From Basidioascus undulatus (lineage: Eukaryota): 33,180 nucleotides of DNA. Position numbers and translations under genes: made by a program. Where the stretch lies: NCBI GenBank assembly GCA_000826855.1, contig JTLS01000086.1, forward strand, positions 1-33,180, in the 5' to 3' direction. The notes under the pieces were generated by a model, which saw only the letters and a list, made by a program, of their open reading frames with translations, did no database searches and was not told the DNA's origin. Positions 1 to 32,659 of this stretch are shown here, in pieces. Numbering within the stretch: position 1 is the first letter of the stretch; every line of letters begins with the position of its first letter.

Positions 1-3000
1 CTGCCCCCTGCGCCCACCCCCCCCATCCAACAACAGAGTTCGAAGTTCGGCCGCCCGATTGGCAAGATCTGGACGATGCTCATCTCTGAACCGTTCTTCA
101 AGCTGCCGCACCTCGTCCGCATGACCGCTGGCTGGGTCTGCCTGCTGGCCCTCATCTTCGGCTCGGTGCGTCTTCTCATCATCAACCCTACAATCGCCTT
201 CCCGTTCATTCCACTCATTCTTACCTTTCCCCTTCCCTTTTCCGCGCTTCATCAGGCATTCGGCTTCCCCCGTCCCGAGGGCACGCGCCTGGCCGATCGC
301 GGTGCGTCGTGATCGCTGAGCGGCTGCCGTGCTTGCGGCATGCAGCGCTATGAAGCTTACACGCGCGAGCTGGGCACGCACACACAGCCATCAGCGTCTT
401 CGGGCTGTTTGTCTTCCAGCTTTGCTTCTGGCTCACGTCCAAGAACCACCGGGCTATTGCGTGGCCCACGGTCATGGTCGGGCTGTACGTCGCGCCCCTT
501 CTGAGAGCTCCCTCACTTCATCGCTGACATGTTGGCCGGGTTGCAGTGGGCTGCAACAGGTCATTGCCCTTTTCGTGCTGAAGACCACCGCCGGCTACGA
601 CATCTTCAAATGGGTCGCAAGTGCGCAATAACCCTCTACGCTGTTATCCGAGGCGTCAATTCTGATAGCGTTGTCCCCTCGACTTCAGCCCTCGCCGCCG
701 ACTTCCTCGCCCAGGCCAACGTCGCGGCAGCGTTCTTCGTTGGTGACGATGTCGCTGCAATGCGTGCGTTTCTTTGCCTCTTCGCCATTCTGCTCCACAT
801 CTCATGCTCATTCACCTGCCGGCATGTGCGTCGGCCACCCACAGACCTCTTCATCATTTCCACGCTCGCGGCGATCATCTTCTTCATTGCCTTCGTCCAG
901 TTGCTTTACTACCTTGGGTACGCGCTGACATCCGACAAATCGTCGTGTACCGCATCGACCTGTATCTGACCGCACCTCTCACGCCGCAGCGTCATGCAGT
1001 GGATGATCAAAAAGTTCGCATGGCTCTTCTACCGCCTCCTGAACATCTCCGGCGGAGAGTCCATCGTCGTCACCGCCACGCCTTTCATTGTTCGTCCGCG
1101 ATATGTTACTATCATTGAAAGCGTTCCGGCTGACTCATTACGGGACGCAGGGTCAAGGAGAGGCGGCATGCTTGGTCCGCCCCTATGTCAAGCACATGAC
1201 TGCGTCCGAGCTTCACCTCATGATGTGAGTTTCCATTCTCGGTTCGTTTAGCCCGTAAACGTAGATTGATAATGGGTTCCCGCTGCAGGACGTCCGGATT
1301 CGCCACTATTGCCGGTGAGTAAAGCGTTGCCGTCCCGCTCAGCGCAGAAGACGCAGACTGATCGTGTCCTGCCAACAGGGAGTGTACGCGTCATCATTGC
1401 ACGATAATGGTTGGAACTGTGAACTGACTCATTGTTCCTGCGCTTGTGTCATTAGGTCATGACTGCGTACAGTACGTCTTCTCGTCCAACCTCGCGGTGC
1501 ACATCAATGGCGTTCTGACGATGCGCCGGGTTTGTAAACAGTCTACATGGGCGTTGACCCTTCCACTTTGGTCACCGTAAATAATTTTTATTTCTCCTCA
1601 AGCTGCCCTACACAATCTAACCATTTTTTGTGCAGGCGGCCATCATGTCCATCCCCGCGTCGTGCGTATCCTGTCCTTCTTCACTTCCTCGTCCCCCTCC
1701 TCCTTCTCTCTGTTCTTCGCCTGTCCTCCTTCCTCCTCCTTCCCCCTTCCACCCGTTCTTCACCTTCATTTCACATGCTCATCCCATTCGACCGGTTTCA
1801 GCATCACAATCTCCAAGCTTCGATACCCCGAGGTCGAAGAGAGCTTGACAAAAGGAAAGGTTGTCATTGACAGAGGTAAGTATCGGTTTACATTGCCCAA
1901 AACCGCAAGCAACTGGGCTGATGCTGTCTGCACAGGTGCGGACAACGAGTACAGGGAGGTGCGGTATGCTTGCTCCAACGGCGCTGTCTTCCATATCCTG
2001 TTTCTAGATGATGCTCACCATTGCCCTTACCCACAAAAGGCCAACGTGCTGCAAGCCTTTAGCAACGGCGCCACATTTGGTATCATATTTTTGCTTGATT
2101 GAGCCAAGAGCGAAAACTGACCCCGCCCCGAAACCAAGGCATCCGCGTCGCCGGCATGATTCTCACCAATGTGTTGACCGTGCTGTCGCTGCTCTGTCCG
2201 TCGTTCTTCCCTTCTCGGCGTTCAGCCATAGTCTGACCGGTCTTGGACGGGGAACAGATGTCATTGACGGTCAACTTCCTCTCTTACCTAAGTACATGTA
2301 AGAATGCGTGCTAACGACTTGCGGGATGAATCCAGGACTCCTTGCCTGGATCGGAAAGAGCTTCAGCATCGGCGTCACGACGCCCGAGGACCTCAAGCTC
2401 GAGCTCATCTTCCGGCAAGTCCCGTTCCTGCAATGAGCCTTCTCACGGTCGCCTGACAGCGTTGCCGCACCGTCTTGTAGGTATATCTTCTACCCGCTCG
2501 CGTGGCTCATGGGCACGCCGAAGCAGGACCTTCTCCACGTCTCTTCGCTCCTTGGGCAGAAGTTCATCGCAAACGAGTCCGTGCTAATGTTTCCAACGTT
2601 ATCTTCCAAACGCCTAGAGCGTGTCACTGACGATTCAAACCATCAACCTTGTTGCCACTCGTGCCTATAGGTTTGTCGCATACAAGGCTCTCATGGCCTT
2701 GCGTGACGCGAACGTCATGACTGAGCGCGGTTTCACCATCGGTGCGTGTTATCCAGTTGCATATTTTCAGTCCCGAAAGCTCCTTAATCCCCGCCCGAAA
2801 CAGCCTCCTACTCGCTGGCTGGCTTCGCCAACATTGCCTCCGTTGGCGTACGTCTTCGTCATTCCCTCGTGCATCATGCTGACACTCAACTGACCCATCA
2901 ACTTTTCAAATGTCTTTAGATCCAAATTGGTGTCCTGTCTAGCTTGGCCTCGAACAAGTCCCGCGTCATCTCGAGCATCGCCCTCAGTGCGCTCTTCTGC

Positions 3001-3186
3001 GGGTTCATTTCCACTTGCCGTGTGTCTACTGTTCACTGCCCGTCTCCGCTCAAAAGACTCGAGGCTAACCTATAACACAAACAGAAACGGCTGGCATCGC
3101 TGGAATGCGTATGTCTTCTTTTCATTTTCGCCTCCACAGACAAGAAACTGACGTTGAGGTTTGGCTTCCCTCGCGCAGTTGTCTAA
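1..3186 (+). CDS. Concentrative nucleoside transporter (CNT/SLC28 family, H+/nucleoside symporter); multi-exon, 5' end outside the window
   Basis: Spliced fragments match CNT motifs: [145 protein letters not shown]. Stop TAA at 3184-3186 in an 8-nt terminal coding exon. Confidence 0.93.
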
Positions 3187-4933
3187 AAACGTGCCTCCCT
3201 GCGAGCGCATACCCCGACCTTTGTCTCCCTTGGCCAGATTCTGTTCATCTTTCTCCCTTTTTTTCCGTTTCACCCTCATTTTTTCACGTACTTTAGGGAC
3301 CGGATTTACCTGCTGCTAGATTTATGCCAAATGATGCCTGTACGATGGGACTTTGTTTGGAACATGGCCTGTGATACCTACGGTGTTTCACTACCTCCGC
3401 TCTTGTATTTCTGGATGATAGATCGGTTACGAGTAACATACGCTGATATGAGCCTGCTTGTGTGGATCTATGCTCTCGTGTGTCTGGAGTAGATCAGGGC
3501 GGGGCGTCTGCCCGTCTGGCAGTCGAATCTGGTTGAGAGATTACAGATAGGTTATGAATTCCGTGTGCACCGGAAGATGCAATACTTTAAAGCTGGGCAG
3601 TGAGGCCTCGCCATAGTCCCTTCTCTCCAAGTCGTAACTCCTTCGGTGGCCTGCCACTCGAGCGCGTTTTGGAGTACAGCCAGAACTAGCGCTTACGATT
3701 GGTCTTGAAAGCTACAATGTTATCATTGTTACCATCAGCCTGAGGAGTTACTTTCAATTCCGCTGCCTCGCATTGCATCGCTGCGTCGTGTGCCTTCTTC
3801 TGGAGGTCGAGTCCACCCAGGGTGCAATCAGCGCAGTTCTGCATCCCCTAAACCCTTACAGATTACCGATTGTGTTGATCATGCTTTGGATCGGCTTCAG
3901 TTTATTCAACCATGCTCTTGCCGGGCACGATGTTGATAAACCAGCGTTGCAGCTTTCATTTCCGAGAAGGAACGTCCTAGTTCATTTGCGCCTCCGAGTC
4001 GGCCATGGTCGGACGAGTAATGAATCTGAGTCCTGATCGCTGATCCTCAAGACGTCTTATCATTATGATATCGGGCGTCGAGGGTAGTAAAGGAAGCGCA
4101 TCCTCGTGTCTGCGCACGCAACATATAATAGGCGGTTCACATTGGTGACCGGCGGCAGGCATCCAAAGACAGGTGCGGGAAGCGTAGTGCACAGTCGTCA
4201 CAATATCATTTCTTGGTAATCAATCACTTCAATATTGCTAATACGGGTAAAACAATTGTAGTCCCCTACTCCACGGCAAGTGATGATGATGAGCTGAGAT
4301 GTCGCAAGCGAGTGCGACTCCGTCACGATGAGCCGCAGGTGCTCGGTAGACTAGGATCGACAGTTCGCACTTCGGTACTCCTCCTGGTGCTTGTTTCACT
4401 AAGATGTCTATCAAAGGGTCTTGAACTCGATCAAGGCTCGTAGCTTCCCCGCCGTGAGCTCGGTGTTGTGGCCAATGTGGAGATGTGGGTACCGGAGGTC
4501 TGCCTGTAGCGATCATCAGTTGTAAAGTAGATTCTCAGCCGCACGCCTATGCTTTGCCGAAGACTGCGTAATTACCGACCAGTAGAGATGTATCCAAGCC
4601 CAACGCGCCGGCAATATGCGCACAATTGTAACCCCTGGTTCCCCTCTCTTAGCGTTGCTGGATCGGCGCCTTGAGCAGAGAGATCGAGGGATCCGCTGAT
4701 CAAAATGATCAGCGGACTTGCTCTAATGTCGAAACCGTCATTTCACACCGCAGTTCTGCTTGGAAATCACCCATGAGCCCCAACCAAATGAACGCATCCT
4801 CTGCGTAGAGTCATCATGCCCTCTTGGCACATTCATCAGAATAGTTCGTTCCATAGGTACTTTCGCTCTCATGCGCGTACAATGTTCCAACCCACAAGGG
4901 ATCCGCGGCTCGCTGGGGGTCCCTCCGCGCACA

Positions 4934-4939
4934 TATAAA
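4934..4939 (+). promoter_or_regulatory. TATA box upstream of the secreted repeat-protein gene
   Basis: TATAAA about 95 nt upstream of an ATG in good context (CCACC-ATG, 5031), with a pyrimidine/CA-rich leader between them. Confidence 0.55.
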
Positions 4940-5030
4940 GGCGGTGGGCGCACTCGGCAGGTCTTCTTTCTTCCAACCTCAACATCTTCGCAGTCAGCCC
5001 ACCCCAGCACCCAAAATTCACAATACCACC

Positions 5031-7075
5031 ATGCGTTTCTCCTTCGCTGTTGTTGCCCGCCCTCGCCCTCGGCACGGCCGTGACCGCTGCTCCCGGCGCT
5101 GCGCCCATCAACAACCGGTGGGTCCTCCGTGTCTAAATCGACTCCTTCCATACCTCTTTTGAAGACCGTACACATTCTTTCTTCAACCGTTCAGGGTGGT
5201 CGCCCGTGGCGGCGGCAGCGACGACTACAACGTGAGTACGAGTTGAACAGCTGCGCAGCCTTCGCGATGATGGCAAAGACTGACTGGCGCTTTCCAATGC
5301 AGCACGACAAGGCGCCTGATGCTGGTCAGTGGGACCACAAGAAGGAGGACGAGAAGAAGAGGGTATATATCCGGTAGCTTTAAATCGTTATAAGGAGTTT
5401 CGATCTCGATCTTAACTCCTTGTCTACTCCGTGTCATCAGGAGGGGTGGAGCCACGACGACAAGAACAAAGACAAGGGCGACTGGAACAAGGGTGACAAG
5501 GTGCACCTTTTCCTCCAATGTATTTTGTAGAAACTTCTACTGTAATGCCTGCTGACCCCTCTTGGTTTTGAAGGGTGGTGCCACGCAGTAGGTCGGCGAG
5601 AAGGAGCACAATCAGAACATGAGCGATTGGAACAAGGGCGACTGGAAGAAGATCTCTCCCATCCCCCCTTTTTGAATGGTCCCCCTCACCAATGATTGAG
5701 ACGCCCTGAGACATCTGACGAGCACAAGCACAAGCAGCCGTCGTCTACCAATGCGCCCGAGCAGACTCCGTCGTCCACGTAGCAATACGAGCAGCCGGCC
5801 TCGTCTACCAAGCAGGAGGCGCAGCCTGCCCCTACCAAAGGCTCCGACGAGCACCAGGTGCGTGGTTGCCTTTAATCCTTCGTTTAAATTGTGCTGACTT
5901 CCGCCTTATTGCCTGAATGATAGGATAGGGAAAGACCGACAAAGGCGACAAGAAGGTGCGTTGGTCGACCCGTTTCGATGGCTGTCTTTCTTCGAGTTCG
6001 AGCTGAACTTTGAGTGCTTTCATGGGTCAGGACGAGGAGTGGAAGAAGGACGACCATGGGAAGCCCACGGACAAGATCGGTGGCTAGATTCAGGACACAG
6101 TCGACCATGGCAAGGTAAATTGATCATTCCTATGCTCCTCCAGCCAGGCGAAGTGGCACTTCATTTGAGCATGCACTTACACTCGCTGCCTTTTTGCAGG
6201 ACTTTGTCGACGGTATCAAGGACAAGGTCTAGGATAAGAAGGTAAACCCTGGACTGGCTCCTGAGGCGATTCGTGCTATCTTCAGCTCACTGGTGTTTGG
6301 GATGTTCGCCGTGCAGGAGGGTGTGAAGGACTGGGTCGACGAGTGGAAGGTGAGTAGGGTTTCTCACATTGGTGTCAGCTGAGCAATAGCAGTTGCTGAT
6401 AATTGAGTCTTTTCTTTGAAGGACGGATGGAAGAAGGAGGGAGACAAGCACGATGACAAGAACAAGGGTGACAAGGTGCGCCTGGTTCCTCACTGTATTT
6501 TGTACCAGCCTTAGTCATTGTGCCTCCTGACGACTTTTGGACTTAAAGGAGGGTGACAAGCAGAATAACAGCACAGAACAAGGACGAGTGGAAGCACGAC
6601 GACCAGAAAAAAAGGGCGACTGGAACAAGCAGGACGACAAGAACCAGGGCTGGAACAAGGGTGATGACAAGAAGGTAATCTGTTGATTCTCCGTTTTGCA
6701 TCAAGTTCCAAAAGACACCGTGCTAACCATCTCCCTCCTGAAAGGACGAGCAGCACAAGAAGCACGACCAAAGGCAGGGCGAAGATGCGCACAAGGACGA
6801 GGGCAACAAAGTAAAGTCGACGTTCAGGTTATCAAAACCGCATACAACGAACTTCAATGTTGACCACTCCCGCTCAACCTAGCAGAAGGACGACAAGGTG
6901 AGTGAAACCGATCTTGAACGCATCGCACAAGGCGTCACGCTGACAGACTACCCGGGTCGACGAGCAGAAGCAGGAGGAGGAGCGCAAGTGGGGCAAGGTA
7001 AGCCGAGACAGTCTCAATTGCTCTCAACTTCCCATTTGAGGCTAATCCCGTGATAAACTTCCAGGGGAACTACGC
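5031..7075 (+). pseudogene. Secreted low-complexity K/D/E/W/H-rich repeat protein, about 16 short exons; disrupted
   Basis: Signal peptide MRFSFAVVA-ALALGTAVTA is restored by removing one C at 5056-5058. Exons encode modules such as HDKAPDAGQWDHKKEDEKKR, EGWSHDDKNKDKGDWNKGDK, EGVKDWVDEWK, DGWKKEGDKHDDKNKGDK, KQEEERKWGK. In-frame TAG at 5589, 5780, 6085 and 6230. Donor site reads AT instead of GT at 5652. The 3' end is uncertain. Confidence 0.8.
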
Positions 7076-7752
7076 CCTCTTTATCGTACCAACTGAGCCA
7101 TTAGTAGAATGCGAGCTTTCGCCCGGCCCAAAGAATTGAAGATGGATAAGTTGACTAGAACGCACGAGCGACAAACACATTCATTCTGAACTTTCCTGTT
7201 TAACCAGTTTTGACTGTCTGCGCCTGAGTGCCTCGTGAAAGATGCTACCCACTTTGACTGAGCGAAACGAACGCGCTGTTACGCGGCAGCGTCAACAATC
7301 CCTTGAGGCCGCTCAAGTAGTTCTCGCGAACACAGCTGTCGTCCTTGTGGACTTCTGAGCCCCGTTAGGCTAACCCACAACAGTCATCCCGGGTTGCGGT
7401 GGCTATGAACCTTATCCCCTTGCCGAAAACTCAGCACAGGCGGCCTAGGTACTCCCTCGCCGAGCTCTCCGCCATCTCTCGTTTGAAGCGATCCCATCAC
7501 TCTCCGGCATGCATGGCGCAGCCCTTACGACTGCAGGGTAATTGACCAGGAATACCTGACTGGGGTATGTTGCGTCAACGTGTGTCTAAAGACATGAGTG
7601 AGTCTAGCCGCCGATAGAAGTGCAGCACGAGGCCGACTGCAGTGCGCAGGCAGGCGCAGCACAGCTCTCCTAGCAGTTATTGCGGCAGTGACGAACATTG
7701 TGCATTTTTGTGAAGTACAACTGTTCATGCACATAAATGCACAGCGCTCAAA

Positions 7753-9354
7753 TAGGGAGTACAATGAACAGCCTTTGTTTGAACTGCTCATGAACTGTTC
7801 ATATGAACTGTTCATGAACAGACGCCCGTGAACAGTGAACATGTATGAACAGGCTGACGAACTGCCTCTGCTCATGAACTGTTCAGGATCTCAAGATAGA
7901 ACCGTTATTTTAGGAAAACATCGGCTCAGTTGGCCCCCATGTAGCACACTTCCGTGGTGGACTTTCCACATGCCTAAGTTTCACGTTAGCGGGGCTTAAT
8001 GGCCGTTGTTGAAGGCGCTGAGGGTACCGAGTATTCCTAACAGGTCCCGCCCGCGTGGGTGGAGGGAGGGCTTCCAAATCAGAAACTGTAACGGAAGGGT
8101 TTTGAACTCACCAGGGCCCAATTAGGGAAAGGCACAGATTTGCCGCTTCCACCGCCGACCTGGGAGGAAGACACGACGGTCAGCGCATGCTTCAGGAAAG
8201 GTAGACATCTTCTGGGTAGAGTAGAGCTTACAGCGAATGCCCTGATGGGCATATAGAAATGGGTGAGTCTTTCCGTTGTGGCGTATCATATGGACAAGAC
8301 GAACCAGACAAAGACCATGACCTACATGCCGCCGTCCAATGCCGCGGCGAGAAGGTACATGCTGGAAACAGTAATATCAGACAACGTTTGAATTTACTAC
8401 TTGCGGAACCAGCCGGGACGGTAGATGCGAAAATACTGTGGGTCGGAGAGTGTAAGTCAAATTGAAGCGGATGTCGAGGCGTTCGTAGTTCATACCCATT
8501 GCGAAACCAGCACAAGCACGAAAGAGAAGAACTGAGGCATCACGCCGTTCAGACATCGAAAGTCAAAGGGAGGTCAAAGCTTACGCACGACACTGCTGTT
8601 AATCCCGACCGAGCGGTTACCGAGCGTCCCTGGGCATGTTCAAAGTCAGCGATTAATGACCTTGGCCATTTCGCGACAAATAGCTTACAGGCAAGCATGG
8701 GAGTGACCACCCGGTCTGCCTTCCAGTTCGGGTGGTACCGGTGGATGAGCCAGAACAGCAGGGGGAGAGCCAGACCCCAGATGATGTCGAGGGGACGATC
8801 TGGAGACGGCACAAAGCAAACAGCTGTAAGCCGCTTTTGCCCTGGAAAGACATGAGAAGACCAACGTACCCCGTAAGGCCCGCTCGGTCTGTAAAGGTCT
8901 TTGCCCAGGTGATGGCGTTAGAGTTGTAGGACTAGACAGCTAGAGTATGGAGCGTTGTGTCAGCGGTAGCGCTTTGAAGTTCGGGCGTTGAGTGCCAGGC
9001 GGTACTTTGGAAGGCACGACATTGCGTACATGTAGTTCTGGAGAGCTCCAACCACCGTGCCAACGCTGAGGTCGGTGTCAGCGGTTCGAATGGGTTTGGT
9101 GTTCCAAACTTCATTTTGAGCAAACAGAACCCATCTGGGTAACAACGTTCTATTATCCTGGTGTCAATCTTTGGCAATATTCCTGTTGGACATGCTGAGG
9201 CTTTGTTCATAAACTTTCGTATGTTCACAGTGAACACATAACCGTGTTCATGAACATCGCTCTGTGAACTTGAACAGCTTCAAACAGGGTCAGACCGGCG
9301 CGAACGCTCACGATCAACTCGTGAATAGTTTGAACACTGTTCATTTAATCCGTA
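7753..9354. mobile_element. Non-autonomous hAT-like DNA transposon (Pack-type) carrying a host gene fragment
   Basis: Left end TAGGGAGTACAATGAACA (7753-7770); reverse complement of the right end is TACGGATTAAATGAACA (9338-9354). Flanking 8-mers CGCTCAAA (7745-7752) and CGTTGAAA (9355-9362) match 6/8. Dense TGAAC/GTTCA subterminal repeats at 7765-7886 and 9205-9343. No transposase seen. Confidence 0.75.
8000..9145 (-). pseudogene. 3' fragment of an OPT-family oligopeptide transporter gene (introns retained), degenerate, inside the hAT-like element
   Basis: Minus-strand exon pieces in the correct OPT order: LPRWVLFAQ..VGTVVGALQNYM; SYNSNAITW (8905-8931); IIWGLALPLLFWLIHRYHPNWKADRVVTPML; SVGINSSV; YLLAAALDGGM*VMVF (TAG 8322-8324); VGGGSGKSVPFPNWAL (8112-8159). 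GTAAGC/GTGAGT donors and CTGAC branch points lie between them. Confidence 0.85.
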
Positions 9355-9580
9355 CGTTGAAAGCAGTAACGTCGCGCATGCCATTGTACAATGCGTCCCA
9401 AAGACATGCGGCTAGTCACGGCTAGGCGCGGCTCTTTATTGCTCTGCATTCATTTCCGGCACGCAGGCCCGAGATTCCCGCGCGGACGCCATTATCGTCC
9501 ACTTGCCCACCTGAGTGCTCTTGCCCGTCGACCATCACCATCTCCCATTGAACAGACCTTTCCCACCACCCAGCACAAAC

Positions 9581-11001
9581 ATGACACCCGTCGCTACCAA
9601 CGAGCCTGCCAAGGCCCCCACGCAGCCTCTCAAGGCTCCGCCAAAGACGCACCAGTCGACAGCCAACCTGTCCGCGAACCCGCTCGCACGTATCTGGCGC
9701 GGCGACAAGGCGGGAACGCTCGCCCTCTCGGCCGCGTACCCGGACTTCAATGGAGACAAGTACACCGAACGCGAGCACATCAAGCGCCACATGGCCGCTG
9801 CGTTCAGGTACTGGGGCAAGCTCGGTTTCGGTGAGGTGCTTTCGGGCGCTGGCGTGACAAGATGAGGGACTGATCGATCTCCATCTATCAGGTGAAGGTG
9901 TTGCTGGCCACATTACAGTCAAGGACCCTGTCCTTCCGGACCATTACTGGTGCGTTCCGGGAATGAACAGCTAACGTGAAAGCGGGAGCTGAATTTCTCG
10001 ATGGGCAACGGTAGGATGAACCCCTTTGCCGTCCACTTCTCTTCCATCACCGTGTCGAAGCTCGTTCTCGTTGGTCCCGATGGCTACGTCGCGCCTGGTG
10101 GTGCGCAGCTGCCCATCAACACCGTGCGTCCCTCCCCTCACCCCAGAAGTCCAACGTCATCGTTGCTGAAAGCCGCTTCCGCACTCGCAGGCCGGATTCC
10201 ACATCCACTCTGCGATTCACCGGGCCCGGCCGGATCTCAAGGCCGCTGCGCACTGCCACAGTGTGCACGGAAAAGCGTGGTCTGTGTTTGGCAAGCCCAT
10301 CGACTGCCTGACGCAGGACTCGTGCTTGTTCTACGTACGCCGTTCGCTTACATTCTGTCCGCAATGCTTCGGTTATGGGCTGATGCCTTGTTGAATGTTT
10401 CAGGACAACCTCGGCGTGTACAAGTGCGTATCTCATTCTTTTCGCTGTGCGGTTTATGGGGCGGCAGTCTGAAATGAAAGCGGAAACAGCAACTTTGGCG
10501 GCATCGTTCTCGCCGACGAAGAGGGGGAAAACATCGCCGCAGCCATGGGCACGAAGTTCAAGACGTGCATCCTCCAGGTCAGCCATCCCCATCCACCTTC
10601 CGTCTCCTCCTCTGCAACACGCCCTTTCTCCCACGAATAGTTCCATACTGACCTGCGCCGAACCCCGACAGAACCACGGCCTCATGACTGCCGGCCAAAC
10701 GGTCGACGAAGCTGTGTACCTGTTCTCCGCGCTCGACAAGCTGTGCCAGGCCCAGCTCCTTGTCGAGGCTGCCAGCGAGGGTGGAGGGCTGAAGAAGAGT
10801 GTCATCGAAAAGGAGGACGCCGCGTTCACCGCGGAGACGCTGCAGCACTGGGAGATCGGTTACCTCAACTTCCAGGTAAGTCGGTGTCCGAATCGTTACA
10901 GCGTGCAGGAATGTGAACTGACAAGGTCTGTTGTTCCGGATGTGTTGCAGCCGGAGTATGAGCTTCTGCTGGAGGAGACGAACGGGGCGTTCTTGAAGTG
11001 A
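9581..11001 (+). CDS. Class II aldolase/adducin N-terminal domain protein (AraD-like; Meu14-like)
   Basis: Motifs [54 protein letters not shown] (metal-binding HxH), LQNHGLMTAGQTVDEAVYLF. ATG 9581, stop TGA 10999-11001, canonical introns. Confidence 0.92.
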
Positions 11002-11154
11002 TCTCTGCGAGACGAGGAACAGTGATACGTGAGAACATGAAATGAGATTGAAATCATAAGCTATCACATTTGATGGCAAACGTCCGTATGAGTCCGCTCC
11101 CGTTCTTCGGTCGCAGCTAATGTCCCCTTGCAACGACTCCTTCATGAGACTATC

Positions 11155-16700: not shown

Positions 16701-19700
16701 ATGGACCGCGTTCCGTTTTCGCATATTGTGCGTGGCGTCGCGTCAGGGGGTTCAAATAGGTGCGTAGTTCCGTCCGCTGGGCGTTCGAGGAGACATCCCG
16801 TGTTCACGCTCTTTCCCCGCCCGTGTCCCGCATGTGCCTCTCATTCGCATCTTTGCACCACTCAGATCCGCGCCCGTATCGGATGGACCTCCCAATGCAC
16901 GCTCCCACTCTCCTCCGCCGTCGTCGACATCGGCGACGACGCGCGTGTCGATAGACGACCACCCGCACCAGCCGTCCCCGACGCCTTCTTTCCAGTCTTC
17001 ACCCTCATCAGCGACATTTCCCTCGACACCGTACCCGCATCCACACCACACACACTCACACTCCCACCCTTCCATATACTCCTCCATCTTCGACGACCCG
17101 CGCCGGCCCTTCCACTCCGCCCCGGCACCCACACCGATCCGCTCCTCCGAGCAGCCCGCCCCGCCCAGCCCAAGCATGCTCTACATGCGCTCGAGCCAGC
17201 CGCCCAAGCATTCCGCAAGACAGCAGCAGCTCGTTCCGCCCTTCGCGCCCTCCAAAGCGGAGCGCGCGAGCGCGTTCGTGCGCGCGACGCTGAACAAGGA
17301 GGCAGGACCCGGCACCGGCGCGGCAGGCGCGCTGAGCGCGGTTGCGAGGAGTCCGGATGGGTTCAGGGTCGCTGTGGCCGGCCGGGACAGTGCGTTCTTT
17401 CTCTTTCGCATTGAGCAATAGAGACTGCCCTTCTGATGCTGGGGGCTTCGCCTTGACAGCTCTCAAAGTTCTCCGAATATCCTACCCCGAGCGCCAACAC
17501 TCCACCTCCGGCTCCATCTCGGGTCCGCCCCTCACCTCCTCCGCCTCCACCTCCTCCCGCTCTCGCTCTGCCCGCAAGCGACACGCGTCCGACCCCTGCT
17601 TCCTCGCCTGCGGACCGGGCGGGGCAACGCTCTCGGAGGAGCTGGACGTCTGGCGCGGGTCCAACATCCCGCTCTCGTATGGGTCTCTGGACGTGCGCTG
17701 GGGTCATGCCGGTGCGTGGTCGTGTTTCTTCTGCTGTCCCCGTCACGCCTTGTTCATCTCCCTACACCTGGGACGATCGCGCTCAGGCTTCTCCAACAAG
17801 CTCGCGACCGCGTGCTCGAACGGCGCAATTCTCCTCTGGGACATCGAGAAAGTGGGGAACAAGTGCGAGCGCACAATCTGGGAGCACAACCGGAGCGTGC
17901 ATCGCATCGTCTTCTCCCCGGTCCACGCCAACTACCTCGCCTCCGCTTCTCAGGATGGGAACCTGAAACTCTGGGTGCGTTTCCATCTTCTCCTTCCCTT
18001 CCATTCAAGGTCGTTGCGCTAAACCTGACGTCGCGCGTACGCAACAGGACCTGCGACAGCAGCAGGGCGCTCGGATCATGATCAAGCACGCGGACCCGAT
18101 CCGGGACGTCGTCTTCTGCCCGCTGCCGTCGACGCCGCTGCAAGTGATCACCGCGCTCGAGAGCGGGACGCTCACGCGCTGGGACCTCCGCATGGCCCAG
18201 AAGGGCGTCATGGACCGCCTCGCGATGGCCCACCGCGGGCCGTGCTACGCGCTCGACTGGCGCGCGCCGGACGACGGTATTGGCGATGCGGGAGGGGAGA
18301 GCGGGAAGGGGTGGCTGGCTAGTGGGGGGCTGGACAAGACTGTCAAAGTGCGTGCGCGCTGGCTGGTTTTTTGACGTGGGGCGAGCAGGCTGATACGGAT
18401 GGATGGAATGGGCACACAGATCTGGGACATGACCTCCCCGTCGCTTGGCCCCCGCCCGCAGCACACGATCCACACCACGCACGGCACGCTCCGCCTCGCC
18501 TGGCGCCCCGAGCACGAGTGCGAGCTCGCGACGCTGCCCATCACCGCGGGGATCAGCGCGTCGAGCGAGGCGCAGAGCAAGGCCGGCGGCGGCGCGGCAG
18601 AGGCGATCGAGATCTGGGACGTCCGCCGCGGGTACATTAGCAAGTACGTTTTGGAGGGGGGCGACAACGCGGCCGGGTCTGGTAAGTCCCCCTTGCGCCC
18701 TATCGGAGTTTTGGTTGGGCTGAGCTGATGGAAGTTTGTGGGGTGGGGGTCATAAGGCCTCACATGGCTCTCGCCCGACTCGCTCGTCGCGACGTACCGC
18801 AACTCGAACGTCATCCAGCACGACATTCGGTACCACCAGCTCCCGCTCGAGAGCATCCCGCGCTGCGCGATGAGCTGGGACCCTGCGGGGAACCTCGCGT
18901 TCGCGCTCGATGGCTTCCGCCCGGGCGAGGTGCCGTTCGACGACGTGTCAGTCTCACCTCTCCCTCTCCCCACCCTTATTCTCTTTTCCTTCTCATTTGC
19001 TTGTACATTACTCGATCTAAAATACATTGCCCTCCTTCCCCTCCCCATCTCGTGCCGTGCACTCGCCAGACTGCCGCACGTTAAGGCGCAGCAGGCAAAG
19101 CTCAAGATCAAGCAGAAGTCGCCCGCGGATCCGGCGTTCGTCCCGGCGCAGGTCCTCGCCGTCGATCAGGTCTCGCCCGTCTTTGATACCGAGGCATTCG
19201 CGTTCCTCGCGATGGAGTACGTGGTGGATCCGTCGATGACGGCGGACTTGGGCGAGCTGTGCGGGAGAAACGCATTGGTGCGCTCGTCGCTTGCGGTCCC
19301 GCCGGCTAGAATCGTGGCACTGATGAAGCTGAGTTGACTCCACTTGCAGGCTGCAGAACATGTCGGCCGCTGGAGAACAGCAAAGACGTGGGAGCTCATC
19401 GCGTCCATCCTGGCGCCCTCGCCGTGGGAGGAGCCTGCGCCTCCTGTGCTCGCCCCGCCCTCGCACTCCCAATCCCCTGCCGTACACGCCCTCTCACCCT
19501 CCTCGGTCCCGCCGCTCCCTCTCCTGCCGCCCTCCCTCGCACCCGTCCCTGAAAACGCAGTCCCGACACGCGCAGCGCTCATCTCCTCCGCCGCCTCCTC
19601 CACGAGCCGCCAGCGCTCGCGCTCGCGCTCGAGATCGCCTTACCTCCGCGCCTCGGACATCGCGTCCCGCTCGCCCGGGCGGAGCCTCTTCTCGCCCCCA

Positions 19701-24486: not shown

Positions 24487-26288
24487 CTACTCCTCGTACG
24501 CCTGTAGGATAACTCCCTCACAATGCCCAAACCCGACGAGGCCCTCCCCCGACCCGTCATCCGTGCACGCGACAAGATCGATCTTGTCTCCGTCCTCGAG
24601 GAACGTGCGCCTGACCTTCGTTCCGTCGTCCAAATCGAGCTCGAACGGTTCCTTCCCGTTGAGGCTCAGCTCAAGAAGCGAGCCGAGCTCAGAGCGGCTG
24701 GGGCCGGAAATGGTGCCCGAGCCTAGGAGGTCACCGGTGTTGAGCGGGCAACCGCCCGACGAGTGATGTGCGAGCATCTGCGCAAACGAGTAGTATAGAT
24801 GCCTCATGTTGGACTTGGAGATGGTTGTCGAGGCGGTCGACCCGGCAGCTGGTGTCCGGCAGCAAAACGACGTGAGTACGTACGACAGCGACGGGTGGCG
24901 AATTAGGGAACAGTGTACGCACGTGTATATTGAACTTCCAGCTGGATGTCCCAGGTAGGCTTGTGATCCTTCTCCTGAAGGTACGATAGCTGCTCAATGC
25001 CCTCGGCCTGTCGCGGGCAGCATCGACTATGAGCATTGTTCAATGGAGATGAGCAGGAACGTGAATGCAGTGCTTACCCGCTCTGGCAGCGGCGCCTTGA
25101 ACGGCTCGAGCGCATCGAGTGTAACGACCCATGGACTTATGGTCGTCCCAAAGTTCTTACCGTTAAACGGTCCTAGGGGCATGTACTCCCAAGCCTGTAT
25201 GTCGCGACTGGACCAGTCATTCATGACGACGACTATACAGCAAAACGGTTGCTTCAGCAGCACTCGCCGAAAGGAGGTAGGCAGAAGTACGCACTCCCGA
25301 AAATGTGCTCGCGCGCCTTGTCGATGGGGACGCGCTTTCCTAGCTCGTTCGGCGCCGACACGAACGCGGCCATCTCGAGCTCTATGTCGAGCTTCGCGGA
25401 AGGACGGAAGACAGGCTGCTTGACCTCAGCCATCGGGTTGAGTAGAACCTGCCCGAGCGGGCGGCGGATGGACGTGCCAGAGGGGACTACAGACGAGGCG
25501 CGGCCGTGGTAGCTGAGGAGCGCATGATAAGTAATTGCAAAGTTTCAGCATTCAGAGTGCGATTACAGGCGCACCCGATTGGGATGTGCAGCCAGTTGGG
25601 CATGAGCGCGGCGCCGTTCGAGCGAAACAGTCGCCCGACGTTCGTCGCATGCTCCTTGCTCGCTAAATCAAATCCACCAAGGAAGATTAGGAAGGCCTAT
25701 AAGCACAGATATATTGGAAAAACGCACCGTAGAAGTCAGTGTAGTCGCGAATCTGGAACGGCAGATGGCTCTTGACGTCCTTCAGCGGAATAAGCGCTTT
25801 CAATCGAAGAGCGTGATCGCCATCAAGAGCCGAGCCGGTTGAAAGAAGAGCTTGGATATGTTCCCGAATGGCGCGGCGGACGGGCAGACGGAGAGCAGCG
25901 AACGCGTTGAGGTTCTCCTGGGGAACAGGTTGAAAATTGTCATCCAGCAGAGTAGAACAAGCGGGCGCGATAGGGCGTCCTTCAAGGATATATCTATGGA
26001 AGGACGACTCCTCACCTGGTCAAAAACGGACGCATCGAAGCCGACGACGTCCGCAAACAGGCTAGCGTGCGACAAGGCTTGCAGGTCGAGCGCATAGTCT
26101 CCTATAGCCGTTGCCGGTCGAGGACGAGGCTAAAAAGCGACCGGAGAGGGTAAGTAACTAGGAGAACTCCGCGATTCACACCCGCGGATACTGACCTGAG
26201 CTTCCGTAGAAATGATCCCGAACGGGATGTTCCGCAACGAGAAATGCGAGTCGGGGCGGACGGACACGAAAGAAGGTGCTGGCGGCAT
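24487..26288 (-). CDS. fahA: Fumarylacetoacetase (FAH) family protein
   Basis: [144 protein letters not shown]. Confidence 0.95.
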
Positions 26289-27017: not shown

Positions 27018-28823
27018 TCAGATGAGCGCCGGGTTGTGCTCAGTTCCACGACTGCCGCGCCACGAGGTGGGTCCGGTACGGTTCTTTGCGCGCTGGCCAG
27101 CGACGCGCCGGGTGAACCACTGAAAGGCAGTGGCACAATTTACGTATCAGAGCCGGGAACAGAACAAAGAAATCTCATGGACAAGAAAGAACGCACCTGG
27201 CGACTAGTGGTCCCAGGCGGGACTTTAAAAGTCATAGTCTTCTGCGCCTCCGCGACGATAGGGCTGTCGAGGGGCTCGAGGATGCTCTCGAATGCCGGGC
27301 GACTGGTAAAGTTGGGGAAGAATGATCAGATTCAGTGTAACAGAGAGGTGTAAGAGGGGGAGAATCCTCACGTGAAGTAGACACAAGAGAAGCGGGGTGC
27401 TCGACTTGCTCGCCCGGCGGGGGCACGACACGGTGCAAGTTCGAGCGGCTGTACGGAGACAGACAAAAGTAGGGAATAGAAAGGTATACAGTATGTGGGA
27501 CTCACAGAAGACCACCAGAGTAGATAGCCATGGCGTCGCCTGCGAATAGAAGGGGTGTGAGTGACTGGCGACAGAAAGCAATGCAGCGTTAAGAGCAGAC
27601 TGACCGAGGTTGCAGACGGCGTGGCCCTCAATAGGCTGTATTTGAGAAAATAAGCAAGAAACCTTCCGATTCGGTTTGAACGTCATCAGGCGCACCTTGA
27701 TGTACTGCCAGTTGTCGTTGCCAGGCGGCAGGACCTGGAGACCGCCCGTCATGTTGTTGTGCAAGAAGCTCTGCTCCGCCCCAGCACGTCCATTTCAATA
27801 AACTGGGAGACACGATGAAAGAATCTGATATCAATTAAACTCACGAATGTGCCAAAGTCCGTGTGGCTACCAATCGCAGCCTTCTCGAGCGCAGCGACGG
27901 GGTCCTTCGGCGGCGGGTTGCGGATGACACGCAGCTCGGACGGCGACGGCTCGGAACTGTGCAGGTCCGTGATCGTGTTCTCGGGGAGACCCAGGCGGAC
28001 GGTCAGGGCGCGGAGGAGAATCCTGGGTCAAATCGAACAGTCAATTAGCGAGTTAGGCATGGGCAGCGTGAAGGGGGCTTTGACGCACATGGTGATCTCG
28101 TGCGAGCGTTCGATGAACGACTTGATCGGCTGCATCCGCTTGTTGCATGTCTGAAAGCGAGACGGGGCAAAAGCTCAGGTCCGAAAGTCCCAAGTGTGCT
28201 GCTTTAAACAACGATACCTCGGGGTAAGTGCGGTGGACAACTTCAGGGTACGCCAGAGCGTCGTCCTGAAAAGGGGGCCGTGTATTCCGAGTCAGCATGT
28301 ATGCACTTTGGGTAACAAGAAGGCTTCCTCCAACTTACCTTGCCCACGTTGATGAACTCCGGGGTGTCCAAATTCCCGAACTCATCGGTGTTGGTCGCGC
28401 CTGCGGCTTTGTATCTGCGCGTGTCCTCAAGCAGTTCAGCAAACGACTGAAACAGCCTGCGCCAGAGAAAGAAAAAATACCCCATGCTCATGCCCTCGTC
28501 ACCCTGTTCAAACTTCATCTTCTCCTCAAGGGGGAGCAAGAACGTGTCCGCGCCCATCTCGAACATAGGGTGGGGGTCCACACCGTGGTTCTGCTCGCAC
28601 CCGGACACATTCAGGACCGGAAACCGAGCACAGAGTCCGACAGTCCACGGACCTTAAGGTAGAAGAACCCCAGCTTCTTGCACGCCTCAAAGAGCGTGTC
28701 GATCTCCGCCTCCTCCCCCGCCGCGACCTTCTGGTAGTCGACGACGAGGAGCGGGTGCGCCGGGCAGTCCGCGGGGAAGGGCACGACGGGGCGGTGGTCG
28801 GGGACGGTGATCGGAACGGGCAT
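27018..28823 (-). CDS. 2-oxoglutarate/Fe(II)-dependent dioxygenase (DIOX_N + 2OG-FeII_Oxy; IPNS-like superfamily)
   Basis: LFEACKKLGFFYLKNHGV, FLLPLEEKMKFEQGD, GYKAAG, iron ligands GSHTDFG (HxD) and SNLHRVV, GGLQVLPPG..WQYIKPIEGHAVCNLGDAM, C-terminus SRGTEHNPALI*. Confidence 0.92.
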
Positions 28824-29588: not shown

Positions 29589-30236
29589 GATGCCCTTTTC
29601 CCAATCGATACTTTTCACAGTCCTTTTTCATCTCTACCACTACCCACGACTCTCCTTCGGCTGGTCATGCTCCTCTAAGTTGTACACTACAGATCCGGAT
29701 ACACACACACCTTCAGAAATGTGTTTCTGCTCAACCCGACGGGATTGCACTGCAGCGCGCTGCATCGGCGACTATGCGCAGCCTGCATGGTGGTGGTGGT
29801 GCGGCCCTATGATGCGACGCGTCTGACTTGACTTTCCCCTTGACCTCTCCTCACCCATCCCCTTTCCTCCGCCATCCCAACATCCCTCACAAGCCATCCA
29901 CCTCGACGCCCCATTCGCTTTTTGATACGCGCTCCTTTCCCACTGGGATCTCTAAATTGTGAGTCCGCTTTACTGGGCTTGGTTCACTACGCGTCAAGCA
30001 CCTCGCGTCGTGCGACCCGCGTCGCGATAGCGAGCCCGCTTGACGGACGCATGTTCAGCCCGAACCGTCTCGTCACAAACCATCATAGAAACCAGCCTTC
30101 TGCTAGTCATGGGCTAGAGCACCTCGATCGAAGGGAGTTACAGCACTCGAAGAGAGGGGTGCAGGGCGTCCACACGTCCACCTCCCATCCGACCCCCTAA
30201 CCTCGCCCATCCATCGTACTCTCCCCTTGGACCGCG

Positions 30237-31643
30237 ATGCTCATGCCATTCTTTCTCCGCCCCGCCTCAGCGCGCCCTGCCAAACTGCTCACCCTCACGC
30301 GCAGCATGTCCGCCACGTCCGACCCGCCCTTCGACCCGCCCTCGTCACGTTCGCCCTCGCCCGTGCCCGCGCCCGCAGCTGCGACCCCCTCTTCACCGCC
30401 CCCGCCCGCAGCGACCGCAGCAGCGCACGCGTCCGAGGCGTCCGCGTCGTCTCTCATCGAGCGGCGTCCTTCGCTCCCTGACCCGCCCGCGGAGGATACC
30501 GAGGGCCAGAGCCAGAGCCAGACGAAGGAGCACTCACCGTCCGCATCTTCCTCCTCTGCCCAACCGCAACCGCGCCCGCACCCGCAGCCGCTCTCGCTCT
30601 CCCCCTCCTCACTGCACGCACCGCTCGCATCGTCGCCCACGCGCACGCACGCACACACCCTCCCCCCGGCCGCGCCGCTCGACCTCCCCGAGCCGATCCC
30701 CGCGCTCTCCCCGACGCGCCCCACCAACCTAACGACGACCATAACGCACGCGACGCCCTCCCCTCTCCGGCGGCCGTCGCACAAGCCGTCCCACTCCCTC
30801 TCCTCCTTCAACCTCAACCTCTTCTCCTCCTCGCCGGACCTGCACCCGACCGAATCCGAGTCCGGCTCGTCTGGCGCGTCCCCGCCGCGCAACGGGGGCC
30901 CGCAGCTCGCAGACAGGCTGAGCACGGCGTTCGGGCGGCTGCTCGGCCCGCGCAGCGCGCAGCGCATGCTCAGCGACGCGGAGATCGAGGAGGAGGCGCG
31001 GCGCGAGCGGGACCGCACGCGCGCGGAGGCGGAACGCATCCTCCGCGGGGAGAGGGAGGAGGACCACCCGCTCCCTCCCCCACCGCAGAACGGTATCCTC
31101 CCCCGCTCCGCGCTCCAGCCGCACCCACACCCAGCCGAGGAGGCCCTCCGCTGCCTCCAAGCGCGCTTTGAGCACCTCGAGCGTTGGTCGGTAGGGCGGA
31201 TTCATGCGCTCGAGCACCGCGTGCGTGCGCTCGAGGCCTCCGCAGCCGCAGCCGCCTCCTCTCCCTCCCTCGCTGCGCTCCTCCCCTCCCCGCCACCGCC
31301 CGCAGCCACCTCCATCCTCCCCGACCCCACTCGGCTCTCCCCAACCCTCCACTCCTTCCCGCGCACGGCCTCCTCCCCGACATCCTCTACCTCCCCCTCC
31401 CCCGACCTCGCTGCTGCGGCCGGGGGGAACCGCGCGCGCTTTCCCCAGCGCACCCTCTCCACGCCCACGCCCGTCGTGCCCCCGGTCGGCGGCCTCGGAA
31501 TCAACACCAAGGTCGCCGGGCACGGAAATGGGGTCAAGGACAAGGTCGAGCGCGCTACTAGCCCGATTGGTGGGCATCCCAAGGCCATGAGCGCGGGTCT
31601 GAGGGCCCGCGCGCAGACTTTCTTGAGGGATGATGGGAAGTAG
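30237..31643 (+). CDS. Intronless Pro/Ser-rich, largely disordered protein with short coiled-coil segments; function unknown (start may be ATG 30306)
   Basis: Uninterrupted 468-aa ORF with GC3-rich codons. Helical patches LSDAEIEEEARRERDRTRAEAERIL and LRCLQARFEHLERWSVGRIHALEHRVRALE. Confidence 0.75.
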   Translation: MLMPFFLRPASARPAKLLTLTRSMSATSDPPFDPPSSRSPSPVPAPAAATPSSPPPPAATAAAHASEASASSLIERRPSLPDPPAEDTEGQSQSQTKEHSPSASSSSAQPQPRPHPQPLSLSPSSLHAPLASSPTRTHAHTLPPAAPLDLPEPIPALSPTRPTNLTTTITHATPSPLRRPSHKPSHSLSSFNLNLFSSSPDLHPTESESGSSGASPPRNGGPQLADRLSTAFGRLLGPRSAQRMLSDAEIEEEARRERDRTRAEAERILRGEREEDHPLPPPPQNGILPRSALQPHPHPAEEALRCLQARFEHLERWSVGRIHALEHRVRALEASAAAAASSPSLAALLPSPPPPAATSILPDPTRLSPTLHSFPRTASSPTSSTSPSPDLAAAAGGNRARFPQRTLSTPTPVVPPVGGLGINTKVAGHGNGVKDKVERATSPIGGHPKAMSAGLRARAQTFLRDDGK

Positions 31644-32659
31644 GGAGTGGGGAGAGGGATGAGGGGGTTATGCTTTATGCACTCCACTATTGACTCTGAG
31701 TTTCTTTGAGCACTGAGTTGGGCAAGCACAAGGGAGGAGATGCCGAGACTCTTTGAGCGCTCTGTTTGGTCTTGCGCATGGGCGGAGATGTTCATGGACT
31801 GCATCAAAGGAGTCTTTGATCATGCGTCGTTGGGAGCAAATGGTGATATGGACTGGGAGCAGGCTCAAGACTGCGCTACGGTCAGGCAGGGCAGATGCCA
31901 CGCTGTCCTTGTTGGCGCCTAAGATCGGCACAACGTAGCGCACACCGACAAAAGAATGAATGTGTGTGCTCTGAAGACATATGGATCGTTCTACGCAGAA
32001 TGGAGACCCCGCCCATCTCAAGAATCGGCACCTTCCCCCAAGGTCCACGAGTGAGCAATGTCCCGCACGCTCTCCAAAATATGCTCCCATTCCTCCCCGC
32101 CATCTCTTTCAAGCAGAGCGGCCTTATCAGCCGCAGCGATAATCCTCTCCCTCCCAGATCGCGCCAGGACCTCTGCCAACTCCCGACGGGACTGGCCGCA
32201 CACGCATCTCGTAAGGGATCGGGTACCTTGTCCGTCGCGCAGCTACGCTGACGCTGTTCGGACTCCGCCCCGCCGCCCTCACAATAACGAAACCGAACTA
32301 ACAGACTTTCTCAATGGATTGCTTTCGCAGTTCGGCCGCGGAAGCGCGAGCGACTTGGGAGAGCGACTTGATAGCGCCGGCACAGGCCTCGCGGCCTGAG
32401 CGTCTTTCCTTTCTCCTTCGTTCGCCTCCTTTCCTCCTTTCCTCCTTTCCCTCTTTTCTGACTCTTCCTTAGTTTGTACACCCCTAGTTAGCACCGACAC
32501 TTCGATGCTATAGCGCTACTCGGTTTTACTTGCTCTCGCGTGCCGCCTGCTTCCGCCTACGAACACGACAGACCGACAGCGCTCGACTACAACACAATCT
32601 TCTGTGAACTTAACTCTACGGCTTCGTACAACAGGGAGGCCTCTTTATCGAACTGTGAG

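Follow-up and report, generated by a model that had tools for sequence, protein, structure and literature searches.

How does part of a transporter gene, introns included, come to lie between two short inverted repeats in a fungal genome? The question is raised by a stretch of 33,180 nucleotides from Basidioascus undulatus (contig JTLS01000086.1 of assembly GCA_000826855.1), called the window below. A preliminary description, made from the letters of the window, had proposed that it contains a hAT-type transposon that captured the 3' part of a gene for an oligopeptide transporter (OPT). Positions 7753-9354 are in all probability a non-autonomous cut-and-paste transposon with terminal inverted repeats (TIRs), most likely a hAT element, carrying a captured piece of about 1.0 kb of an OPT gene (the cargo). 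The element spans about 1.6 kb, of which the backbone makes up about 600 bp. Coordinates are collected in Table 1.

Ends and arms of the element

The left TIR and the degraded right TIR are found where they had been predicted. Aligned as TAGGGAGTACAATGAACA against TACGGATTA-AATGAACA, they share 15 of 18 columns, with a single gap. Of 20,000 random pairings of an 18-mer with a 17-mer from the window, none scores as high. TIRs of hAT elements are short (about 10-25 bp) and begin with YARNG; the repeats here agree with this description. A weaker inverted likeness of the two ends persists to about 40 nt and then fades. No further copy of the left TIR is present in the window at up to three mismatches.

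The 8-mers on either side of the TIRs agree at six of eight positions. The binomial chance of at least six matches is 0.0042. The imperfect target-site duplication (TSD) that had been claimed is present.

Inside the TIRs lie two subterminal arms rich in the hexamer TGAACA and its complement TGTTCA, also as first described. Positions 7745-7900 and 9195-9362, about 1% of the window, hold 16 of its 39 such hexamers; only one lies between the arms, and elsewhere in the window no 150-nt stretch contains three or more. The motif TGTTCATGAAC is found ten times in the window at up to one mismatch, compared to an expectation of 0.45, and none of 100 shuffles reaches ten. Eight of these matches are in the arms, one is at 7722 just outside them, and one is at 31789. 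When the arms are compared with each other by blastn, the exact words that they share are at most 12 nt long. The hexamers are presumed to be transposase-binding sites.

A motif of the arm type, AACTGTTCATGCACA (7719-7733), is located 20 nt outside the left TIR, within a small inverted repeat, TGTGCATTTTTGTG/CACATAAATGCACA (7699-7712/7730-7743). It may be left over from an older insertion of a related kind, or may have arisen by chance.

A scan of metagenomes for the TIR TARGGAGTACAATGAACA returned 42 loci, none of which resembles the element beyond 21 nt. They contain at most two hexamers in the 200 nt from the start of the match, one of these inside the TIR itself. Because they have neither extended likeness nor hexamer arrays, they are counted as chance matches. 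A search for the TIR string in literature text found nothing related.

A sibling element elsewhere in the genome

Two public DNA sequencing runs (X1 and X2, from two studies) contain 94-97% of the sampled words of positions 7000-10000; one of them may be the source of the window itself. Contigs of both runs were aligned to positions 7600-9500 at a likeness of at least 80%. A third run (X3) contributed no contigs to this alignment, which is no evidence of absence. In both X1 and X2, contigs extend from the left flank through the left arm into the cargo (7600-8152), and from the cargo through the right arm into the right flank (9046-9500), with zero differences. The junctions are therefore no assembly accident of the window alone.

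Both runs also contain a second locus, the sibling, which matches the element at 7753-7838, 8019-8046, 9098-9135 and 9218-9345. Its depth is that of a single copy (45.1 compared to 48.8 in run X1, and 18.2 compared to 18.3 in run X2), and the summed depth over the arms corresponds to the element plus one sibling. Single-copy arms had been named beforehand as an observation that would refute the interpretation; the arms are not single-copy.

The sibling's DNA turns unlike the window immediately before 7753, which fixes the left boundary of the element to the base. Past 9345 it continues for ten bases to a full terminus, TAAGGAGTACAATGAACA, a 17/18 inverted match to the left TIR of the element, and thereby reveals the TIR of the element family. 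It is bounded by 8-mers of its own, CACGAGCG/CACAAACG, which are identical at six of eight positions. Thus, both the element and the sibling have 8-bp duplications exactly at the predicted boundary, as hAT elements do. Since the sibling carries both arms together with its own TSD, the two arms travel as one unit. No OPT cargo is found in the sibling at the likeness used.

The captured OPT fragment

The OPT content of the element, with its introns, was confirmed by protein comparison. One read-through frame, searched with phmmer against 1.84 billion proteins, gave five matches with E-values from 1.5e-6 to 3.5e-5. Four of the five contain the OPT domain PF03169 (E down to 2.5e-33), and the fifth is a fragment of 54 residues. 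Through one match, basidiomycete-like, 120 full-length OPTs were fetched for tblastn; their basidiomycete names follow from this choice and are no test of a basidiomycete origin of the window. They produced 271 high-scoring segment pairs, 264 of them within 8000-9099; the seven elsewhere are all weak.

The alignments divide the cargo into eight exon pieces on the minus strand, corresponding roughly to residues 590-770 of a protein some 785 residues long. The 5' three quarters of the gene and its last small exon are missing. Full-length OPTs extend 13-19 residues past the WAL/WGL point of exon piece X8, so the last exon was not copied. Judged by its likeness to these proteins, the cargo is a broken OPT fragment, comprising roughly the final 180 of some 785 residues, and no member gene of the family.

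Five introns, 39-70 nt long, have GT at their 5' and CAG at their 3' ends; two others, 8972-9029 and 8160-8300, are tentative. The best OPT match is exon piece X3, with 42-53% identity. Splice phases agree with the OPT alignment between exon pieces X3 and X4 and between exon pieces X6 and X7.

Table 1. Features of the element, its cargo and the surrounding window.
Feature	Positions	Strand	Remarks
Left TSD CGCTCAAA	7745-7752	.	6/8 compared to right 8-mer
Left TIR TAGGGAGTACAATGAACA	7753-7770	+	sibling contig likeness (runs X1, X2) starts at exactly 7753
Left subterminal arm, TGAACA/TGTTCA-rich	7771-7890	.	11-nt tandem TGAACTGTTCA; sibling likeness 7753-7838
Backbone, no coding signal	7891-8080	.	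8019-8046 common to sibling; no Pfam match in six frames
Cargo, genomic copy of 3' part of OPT gene	8081-9083	-	about 95% alike second locus; OPT homology
Exon piece X8, VGGGSGKSVPFPNWAL	8112-8159	-	followed by GTGAGT donor 8106-8111
Exon piece X7, MYLLAAALDGGM*VMVFVWF	8301-8361	-	in-frame TAG 8322-8324
Exon piece X6, YFRIYRPGWFR	8401-8435	-	OPT alignment; next intron 8362-8400
Exon piece X5, FFSFVLVLVSQW	8496-8531	-	OPT alignment
Exon piece X4, TLGNRSVGINSSV	8589-8629	-	introns 8630-8688 and 8532-8588 GT...CAG
Exon piece X3, IVP / LDIIWGLALPLLFWLIHRYHPNWKADRVVTPMLA	8689-8799	-	1-nt deletion at 8790
Exon piece X2, ..AV*SYNSNAITW / GKDLYRPSGPYG	8870-8971	-	10-nt deletion at 8903; in-frame TAG 8932-8934
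Exon piece X1, VGTVVGALQNY	9030-9065	-	preceded by intron 3' end CGCTGACACCGACCTCAG (9066-9083)
Backbone with OPT-like LLPRWVLFAQ (9116-9145, minus strand)	9084-9200	.	9098-9135 common to sibling
Right subterminal arm, TGAACA/TGTTCA-rich	9201-9337	.	sibling likeness 9218-9345
Right TIR, degraded; reverse complement TACGGATTAAATGAACA	9338-9354	-	pairs with left TIR
Right TSD CGTTGAAA	9355-9362	.	6/8 compared to left 8-mer
Na+-dependent nucleoside transporter, intron-rich	~400-2600	+	
Class II aldolase/adducin-type protein, intron-rich	9582-~11000	+	start 228 nt right of element
WD40 protein, intron-rich	17336-18371	+	
Fumarylacetoacetase, intron-rich	24490-26019	-	
Dioxygenase-like exon	28246-28653	-	below Pfam threshold

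A second, donor-like copy of the cargo

A further locus, at single-copy depth in both runs, contains the cargo outside the element. It covers positions 8090-9083 only, with 7-8 changed letters per 151-172 bases. Outside these limits its DNA is unrelated to the window: random 30-mers do as well in 3223 of 5000 cases on the 8090 side and in 520 of 5000 on the 9083 side. About nine more bases, down to 8081, can be aligned by eye if a 4-nt indel is allowed, and the breakpoint is placed near 8081. The copied segment is consequently about 1.0 kb long (about 8081-9083), less than the 1.15 kb or so given in the preliminary description.

The likeness to the second copy is unbroken through exons and introns, which indicates that genomic DNA, rather than a transcript, was the source of the cargo. 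The segment opens with the 3' end of an intron (9066-9083) and stops 31 nt into an intron with a GTGAGT donor, so both breakpoints lie in introns. The second copy is better preserved and seems to run on as intron past the breakpoints; this fits a transfer from gene to element. The description of a non-autonomous TIR element with an intron-containing, genomic 3' piece of an OPT gene is thus upheld by a donor-like locus that is about 95% alike. An interior derived from a host gene, of which a separate copy exists elsewhere, is also what is found in transposons of the Pack type.

The second copies of arms and cargo could in principle be alleles on another haplotype. This was rejected, as the depth of the flanks and that of the variants are about equal (48.8 compared to 43-49 in run X1) and the second copies have flanks of their own. 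They are therefore separate loci. Longer relatives of the 122-residue open reading frame (ORF) at 8552-8917 were also looked for among 148 candidate proteins; none reached E <= 0.001, so the donor protein is apparently not in that collection (proteins of 215-2000 residues).

Where does the cargo begin? The preliminary description had it start at a 'PPR..F..Q' region, which is the peptide LLPRWVLFAQ, 45 nt upstream of exon piece X1. With L, P, R and AQ in common, this peptide is similar to the KLPPRxTFxxQ motif of OPTs, and its Q is at the right spacing from the VGT of exon piece X1. However, it lies outside the segment common to the second OPT copy and inside 9098-9135, which is common to the sibling. 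The second copy is no more alike at this region than 520 of 5000 random 30-mers. The intron needed after the peptide would be 44 nt long and out of phase, and in the second copy GT is absent from the next 30 bases. The peptide is probably backbone with a chance resemblance to OPT, going by this comparison, and the start first assigned to the cargo is then probably wrong.

The same peptide underlies another history of the sibling. If 9098-9135 were an OPT exon, the sibling, which also has this piece, would be a deletion derivative of the cargo-bearing element, and transposition would have followed capture. Besides the absence of a GT and the 44-nt, out-of-phase intron, the divergence of the donor-like copy from the window at 9083 argues against this. 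The gap in the sibling's likeness, 8046-9098, nearly coincides with the cargo at 8081-9083, as for a backbone that never carried the cargo. Divergence is also higher between sibling and backbone (about 87-95% alike where alignable, below 80% elsewhere) than between cargo and donor-like copy (about 95% alike). A deletion derivative is for these reasons decidedly unlikely. The greater divergence of the sibling suggests that its lineage split off before the capture.

Capture must also be weighed against decay in place. Here, a resident OPT gene would have lost its 5' part, and related small repeats would have inserted independently on either side of it. An imperfect TSD of 6/8 and an OPT-like peptide beyond the duplicated segment would be in keeping with such a course. 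The sibling contradicts it: at a different locus, it carries both arms together as a unit, bounded by a TSD of its own. In addition, the OPT likeness stops within introns on both sides, no other OPT piece is found in the window (the 7 of 271 segment pairs elsewhere being weak), including the flanks, and a plus-strand aldolase gene begins only 228 nt to the right of the element. Decay in place is scarcely credible, and capture by a transposon is the reading followed below.

Decay after capture

The captured piece is unable to encode a transporter. Two deletions break the reading frame of the element's copy, and two in-frame TAG codons are present, in accordance with the statement that the gene piece is now decaying. 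At both deletion sites, the reading frame is intact in the donor-like copy. Behind 8903 this copy has ten extra bases, with which exon piece X2 reads SYNSNAITWGALGKDLYRPSGPYG. At 8790 it has one extra G, and exon piece X3 reads IVPLDIIWGL...TPMLA in one frame, like other members of the family. The intron 8362-8400 is only 39 nt long in the element; the second copy has 22 more bases there (at 8378).

Position 8324, within the TAG of exon piece X7, is A in the window, and the only contig there in either run reads G (CAG). The copy that this contig represents is ambiguous, so the difference is either a strain difference or the contig is one of the second copy.

Repeat-induced point mutation (RIP) was considered as a cause of decay. 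In run X1, 22 transitions and 23 transversions were counted among 45 changes, those of the sibling included. RIP was rejected because there is no excess of transitions.

Superfamily assignment

Judging by the length of the TSD, the TAGGG end and the hexamer arrays of the arms, the element probably belongs to the hAT superfamily. No hAT transposase domain was found in the six frames of positions 1-11100 or in window ORFs of at least 110 residues. Pfam returned no family over the element; like transposons of the Pack type, it is without a transposase of its own.

Mutator-like elements, to which the Pack-MULEs belong, have TSDs of 9-11 bp and TIRs of 100 bp or more. A Mutator-like origin was rejected, since the TSD measures 8 bp and inverted likeness extends over no more than about 40 nt.

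The same anatomy could belong to another superfamily with 8-bp TSDs, such as Zisupton/KDZ or the P-like elements. TSDs of 8 bp are shared by these superfamilies and are not exclusive to hAT. Ac-like hAT elements also prefer targets of the form nTnnnnAn, a tendency that is not strictly defining, and both TSDs fail to fit it. Conversely, a TAGGG end, TIRs of about 18 bp and hexamer arrays in both orientations are the classic layout of Ac/Ds-type elements. Zisupton/KDZ is listed as present in Basidiomycota, and hAT is listed as ubiquitous in fungi (PMC5751038). A superfamily other than hAT is unlikely on balance.

Evidence against capture by a hAT element

Several observations weigh against the interpretation of the locus as a hAT element with an OPT cargo. 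The first concerns the cargo. It stays below the Pfam profile threshold for OPT (PF03169), and no family was returned for eight ORF pieces, for three read-through minus-strand frames (7900-9200) or for the six frames of 1-11100. Moreover, some 15-25 residues of a conserved OPT stretch, ILLxVQGTNxWSG, have no counterpart between exon pieces X1 and X2. The best candidate found there was TQRSIL, with 13.5 bits compared to up to 16.2 bits in shuffles. A 58-nt GT..AG intron (8972-9029) would join the frames yet leave the protein short. No indel of the second copy is listed in 8942-9029, and the donor-like copy may be atypical there too.

The second concerns the ends. Both TSDs, that of the element and that of the sibling, are imperfect, with 6/8 identity each; this is expected of old insertions. 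As for nTnnnnAn, positions 2 and 7 are G and A in the element and A and C in the sibling, and two sites are too few to judge. The hAT assignment is a structural one, based on TSD length and end sequence.

The third concerns the sibling. Only a single sibling is seen, so the element family is very small. The DNA between its matched pieces could be short, could be other DNA, or could even be an autonomous element. And if LLPRWVLFAQ should truly be OPT, piece 9098-9135 of the sibling would be OPT-derived and the sibling a deletion derivative.

How the fragment may have been captured

Template switching during the repair of an excision break is inferred to be the most likely route of capture. The same mechanism has been proposed for Pack-type elements and for the filler DNA of Ac/Ds. 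In this model, an attempted excision would leave a double-strand break in an element with a backbone of about 600 bp. The repair polymerase would then continue on a new template, the OPT locus at another place in the genome, and about 1.0 kb of OPT genomic DNA, comprising the eight exon pieces and their introns, would enter the interior of the element. After capture, the frame would be lost through the 10-nt and 1-nt deletions and the in-frame stops. Template switching would be expected to leave microhomology at the junctions, near which TTCGAA (9084-9091) and AAACTGT (8083-8089) are located.

Did the element move after it had acquired its cargo? The preliminary description had it mobilised in trans. 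The contigs of the two runs, at a likeness of at least 80%, show a single cargo-bearing copy and no sign of movement after capture. At the age suggested by the 5% divergence of the cargo, the TSD would be expected to contain fewer than two mismatches (P ~0.06), which weakly favours capture in place.

A bolder proposal is that the element represents a family of hAT-type miniature elements, undescribed in this fungus and still mobilisable, that acquires intron-containing gene pieces, and that RNA transcribed from the OPT fragment matches the donor gene and dampens it. Small RNAs derived from Pack-MULEs in rice have been proposed to dampen their donor genes. For the present element, this proposal is highly improbable.

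Comparison with known systems

Ac/Ds of maize has TAGGG-type ends, an 8-bp TSD and subterminal hexamer arrays that serve as transposase-binding sites. In rearranged Ds derivatives, the interior has been replaced by foreign filler DNA in gap repair. The OPT element resembles them in its ends, TSD length, hexamer arrays and replaced interior. It differs in that it has no sequence relatedness to Ac/Ds, its hexamer is TGAACA and not AAACGG, and it has no known autonomous partner.

Gene fragments are captured at the DNA level, introns included, by Pack-MULEs in rice and Arabidopsis. Helitrons, which have neither TIRs nor TSDs, are another class of capturing elements. An example in a basidiomycete is the reported Helitron gene capture in Pleurotus ostreatus (PMC4289320). 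The OPT element has in common with both groups that a non-autonomous DNA element captured a gene fragment at the DNA level. Unlike them, it has arms that share an inverted likeness of about 18-40 nt, and an 8-bp TSD.

Pack-TYPE transposons, including Pack-hAT of maize, are described as a group found in plants, and the main text of that source does not use the word 'fungi' (Gisby & Catoni 2022, PMC8903248). As in the elements described there, a non-autonomous TIR element with TSDs has an interior of host coding DNA copied from elsewhere. The differences are a fungus-like host with short introns and the finding of one cargo-bearing copy and one sibling, with amplification unseen.

The closest fungal case found is a hAT element with a histone H3 copy, known from Pseudocercospora fijiensis and other Dothideomycetes (Dhillon et al. 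2019, PMC6710886). Both elements are fungal, with an 8-bp TSD, inverted ends (a 20-bp TIR in the histone element) and a decaying copy of a host gene. The histone element is about 9.5 kb long, has a hAT transposase domain, occurs in hundreds of copies mutated by RIP, and carries an intron-less H3 derived from a transcript. The OPT element, by contrast, is 1.6 kb long, has no transposase, is single, has kept its introns (a genomic source), and shows no excess of transitions.

Capture of gene fragments by cut-and-paste elements has been documented mainly in plants. The fungal cases of gene capture found in print are the large autonomous hAT element with intron-less histone H3 (PMC6710886) and Helitrons (PMC4289320). 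A literature search found no fungal example of a small, non-autonomous hAT-type element that carries a gene fragment with introns, although one may be in print.

The present locus is a small case that can be dissected. Because a donor-like copy, a cargo-free sibling and both intronic breakpoints can be identified, it is useful for the study of capture by template switching in a compact genome. It also cautions annotators, who would otherwise record the fragment as an OPT pseudogene or partial gene model. With a single decaying copy and no sign of function, its biological weight is modest.

Genomic neighbourhood

The captured OPT fragment, on the minus strand, is arranged head to head with the class II aldolase gene. 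A protein search with an exon of the fumarylacetoacetase gene matched mostly bacterial and unnamed proteins, at 42-61% identity, and yielded no taxonomic placement. Farther away, the stretch 30000-31700 has no Pfam match and is 70-74% G+C, with overlapping open frames on both strands of up to 480 residues. To the left of the element is a stretch poor in ORFs. It contains a diverged direct duplication (5439-5588/6460-6629), 75-81% alike over 53-106 nt, and an 18-nt tandem repeat in three copies at 6592-6644.

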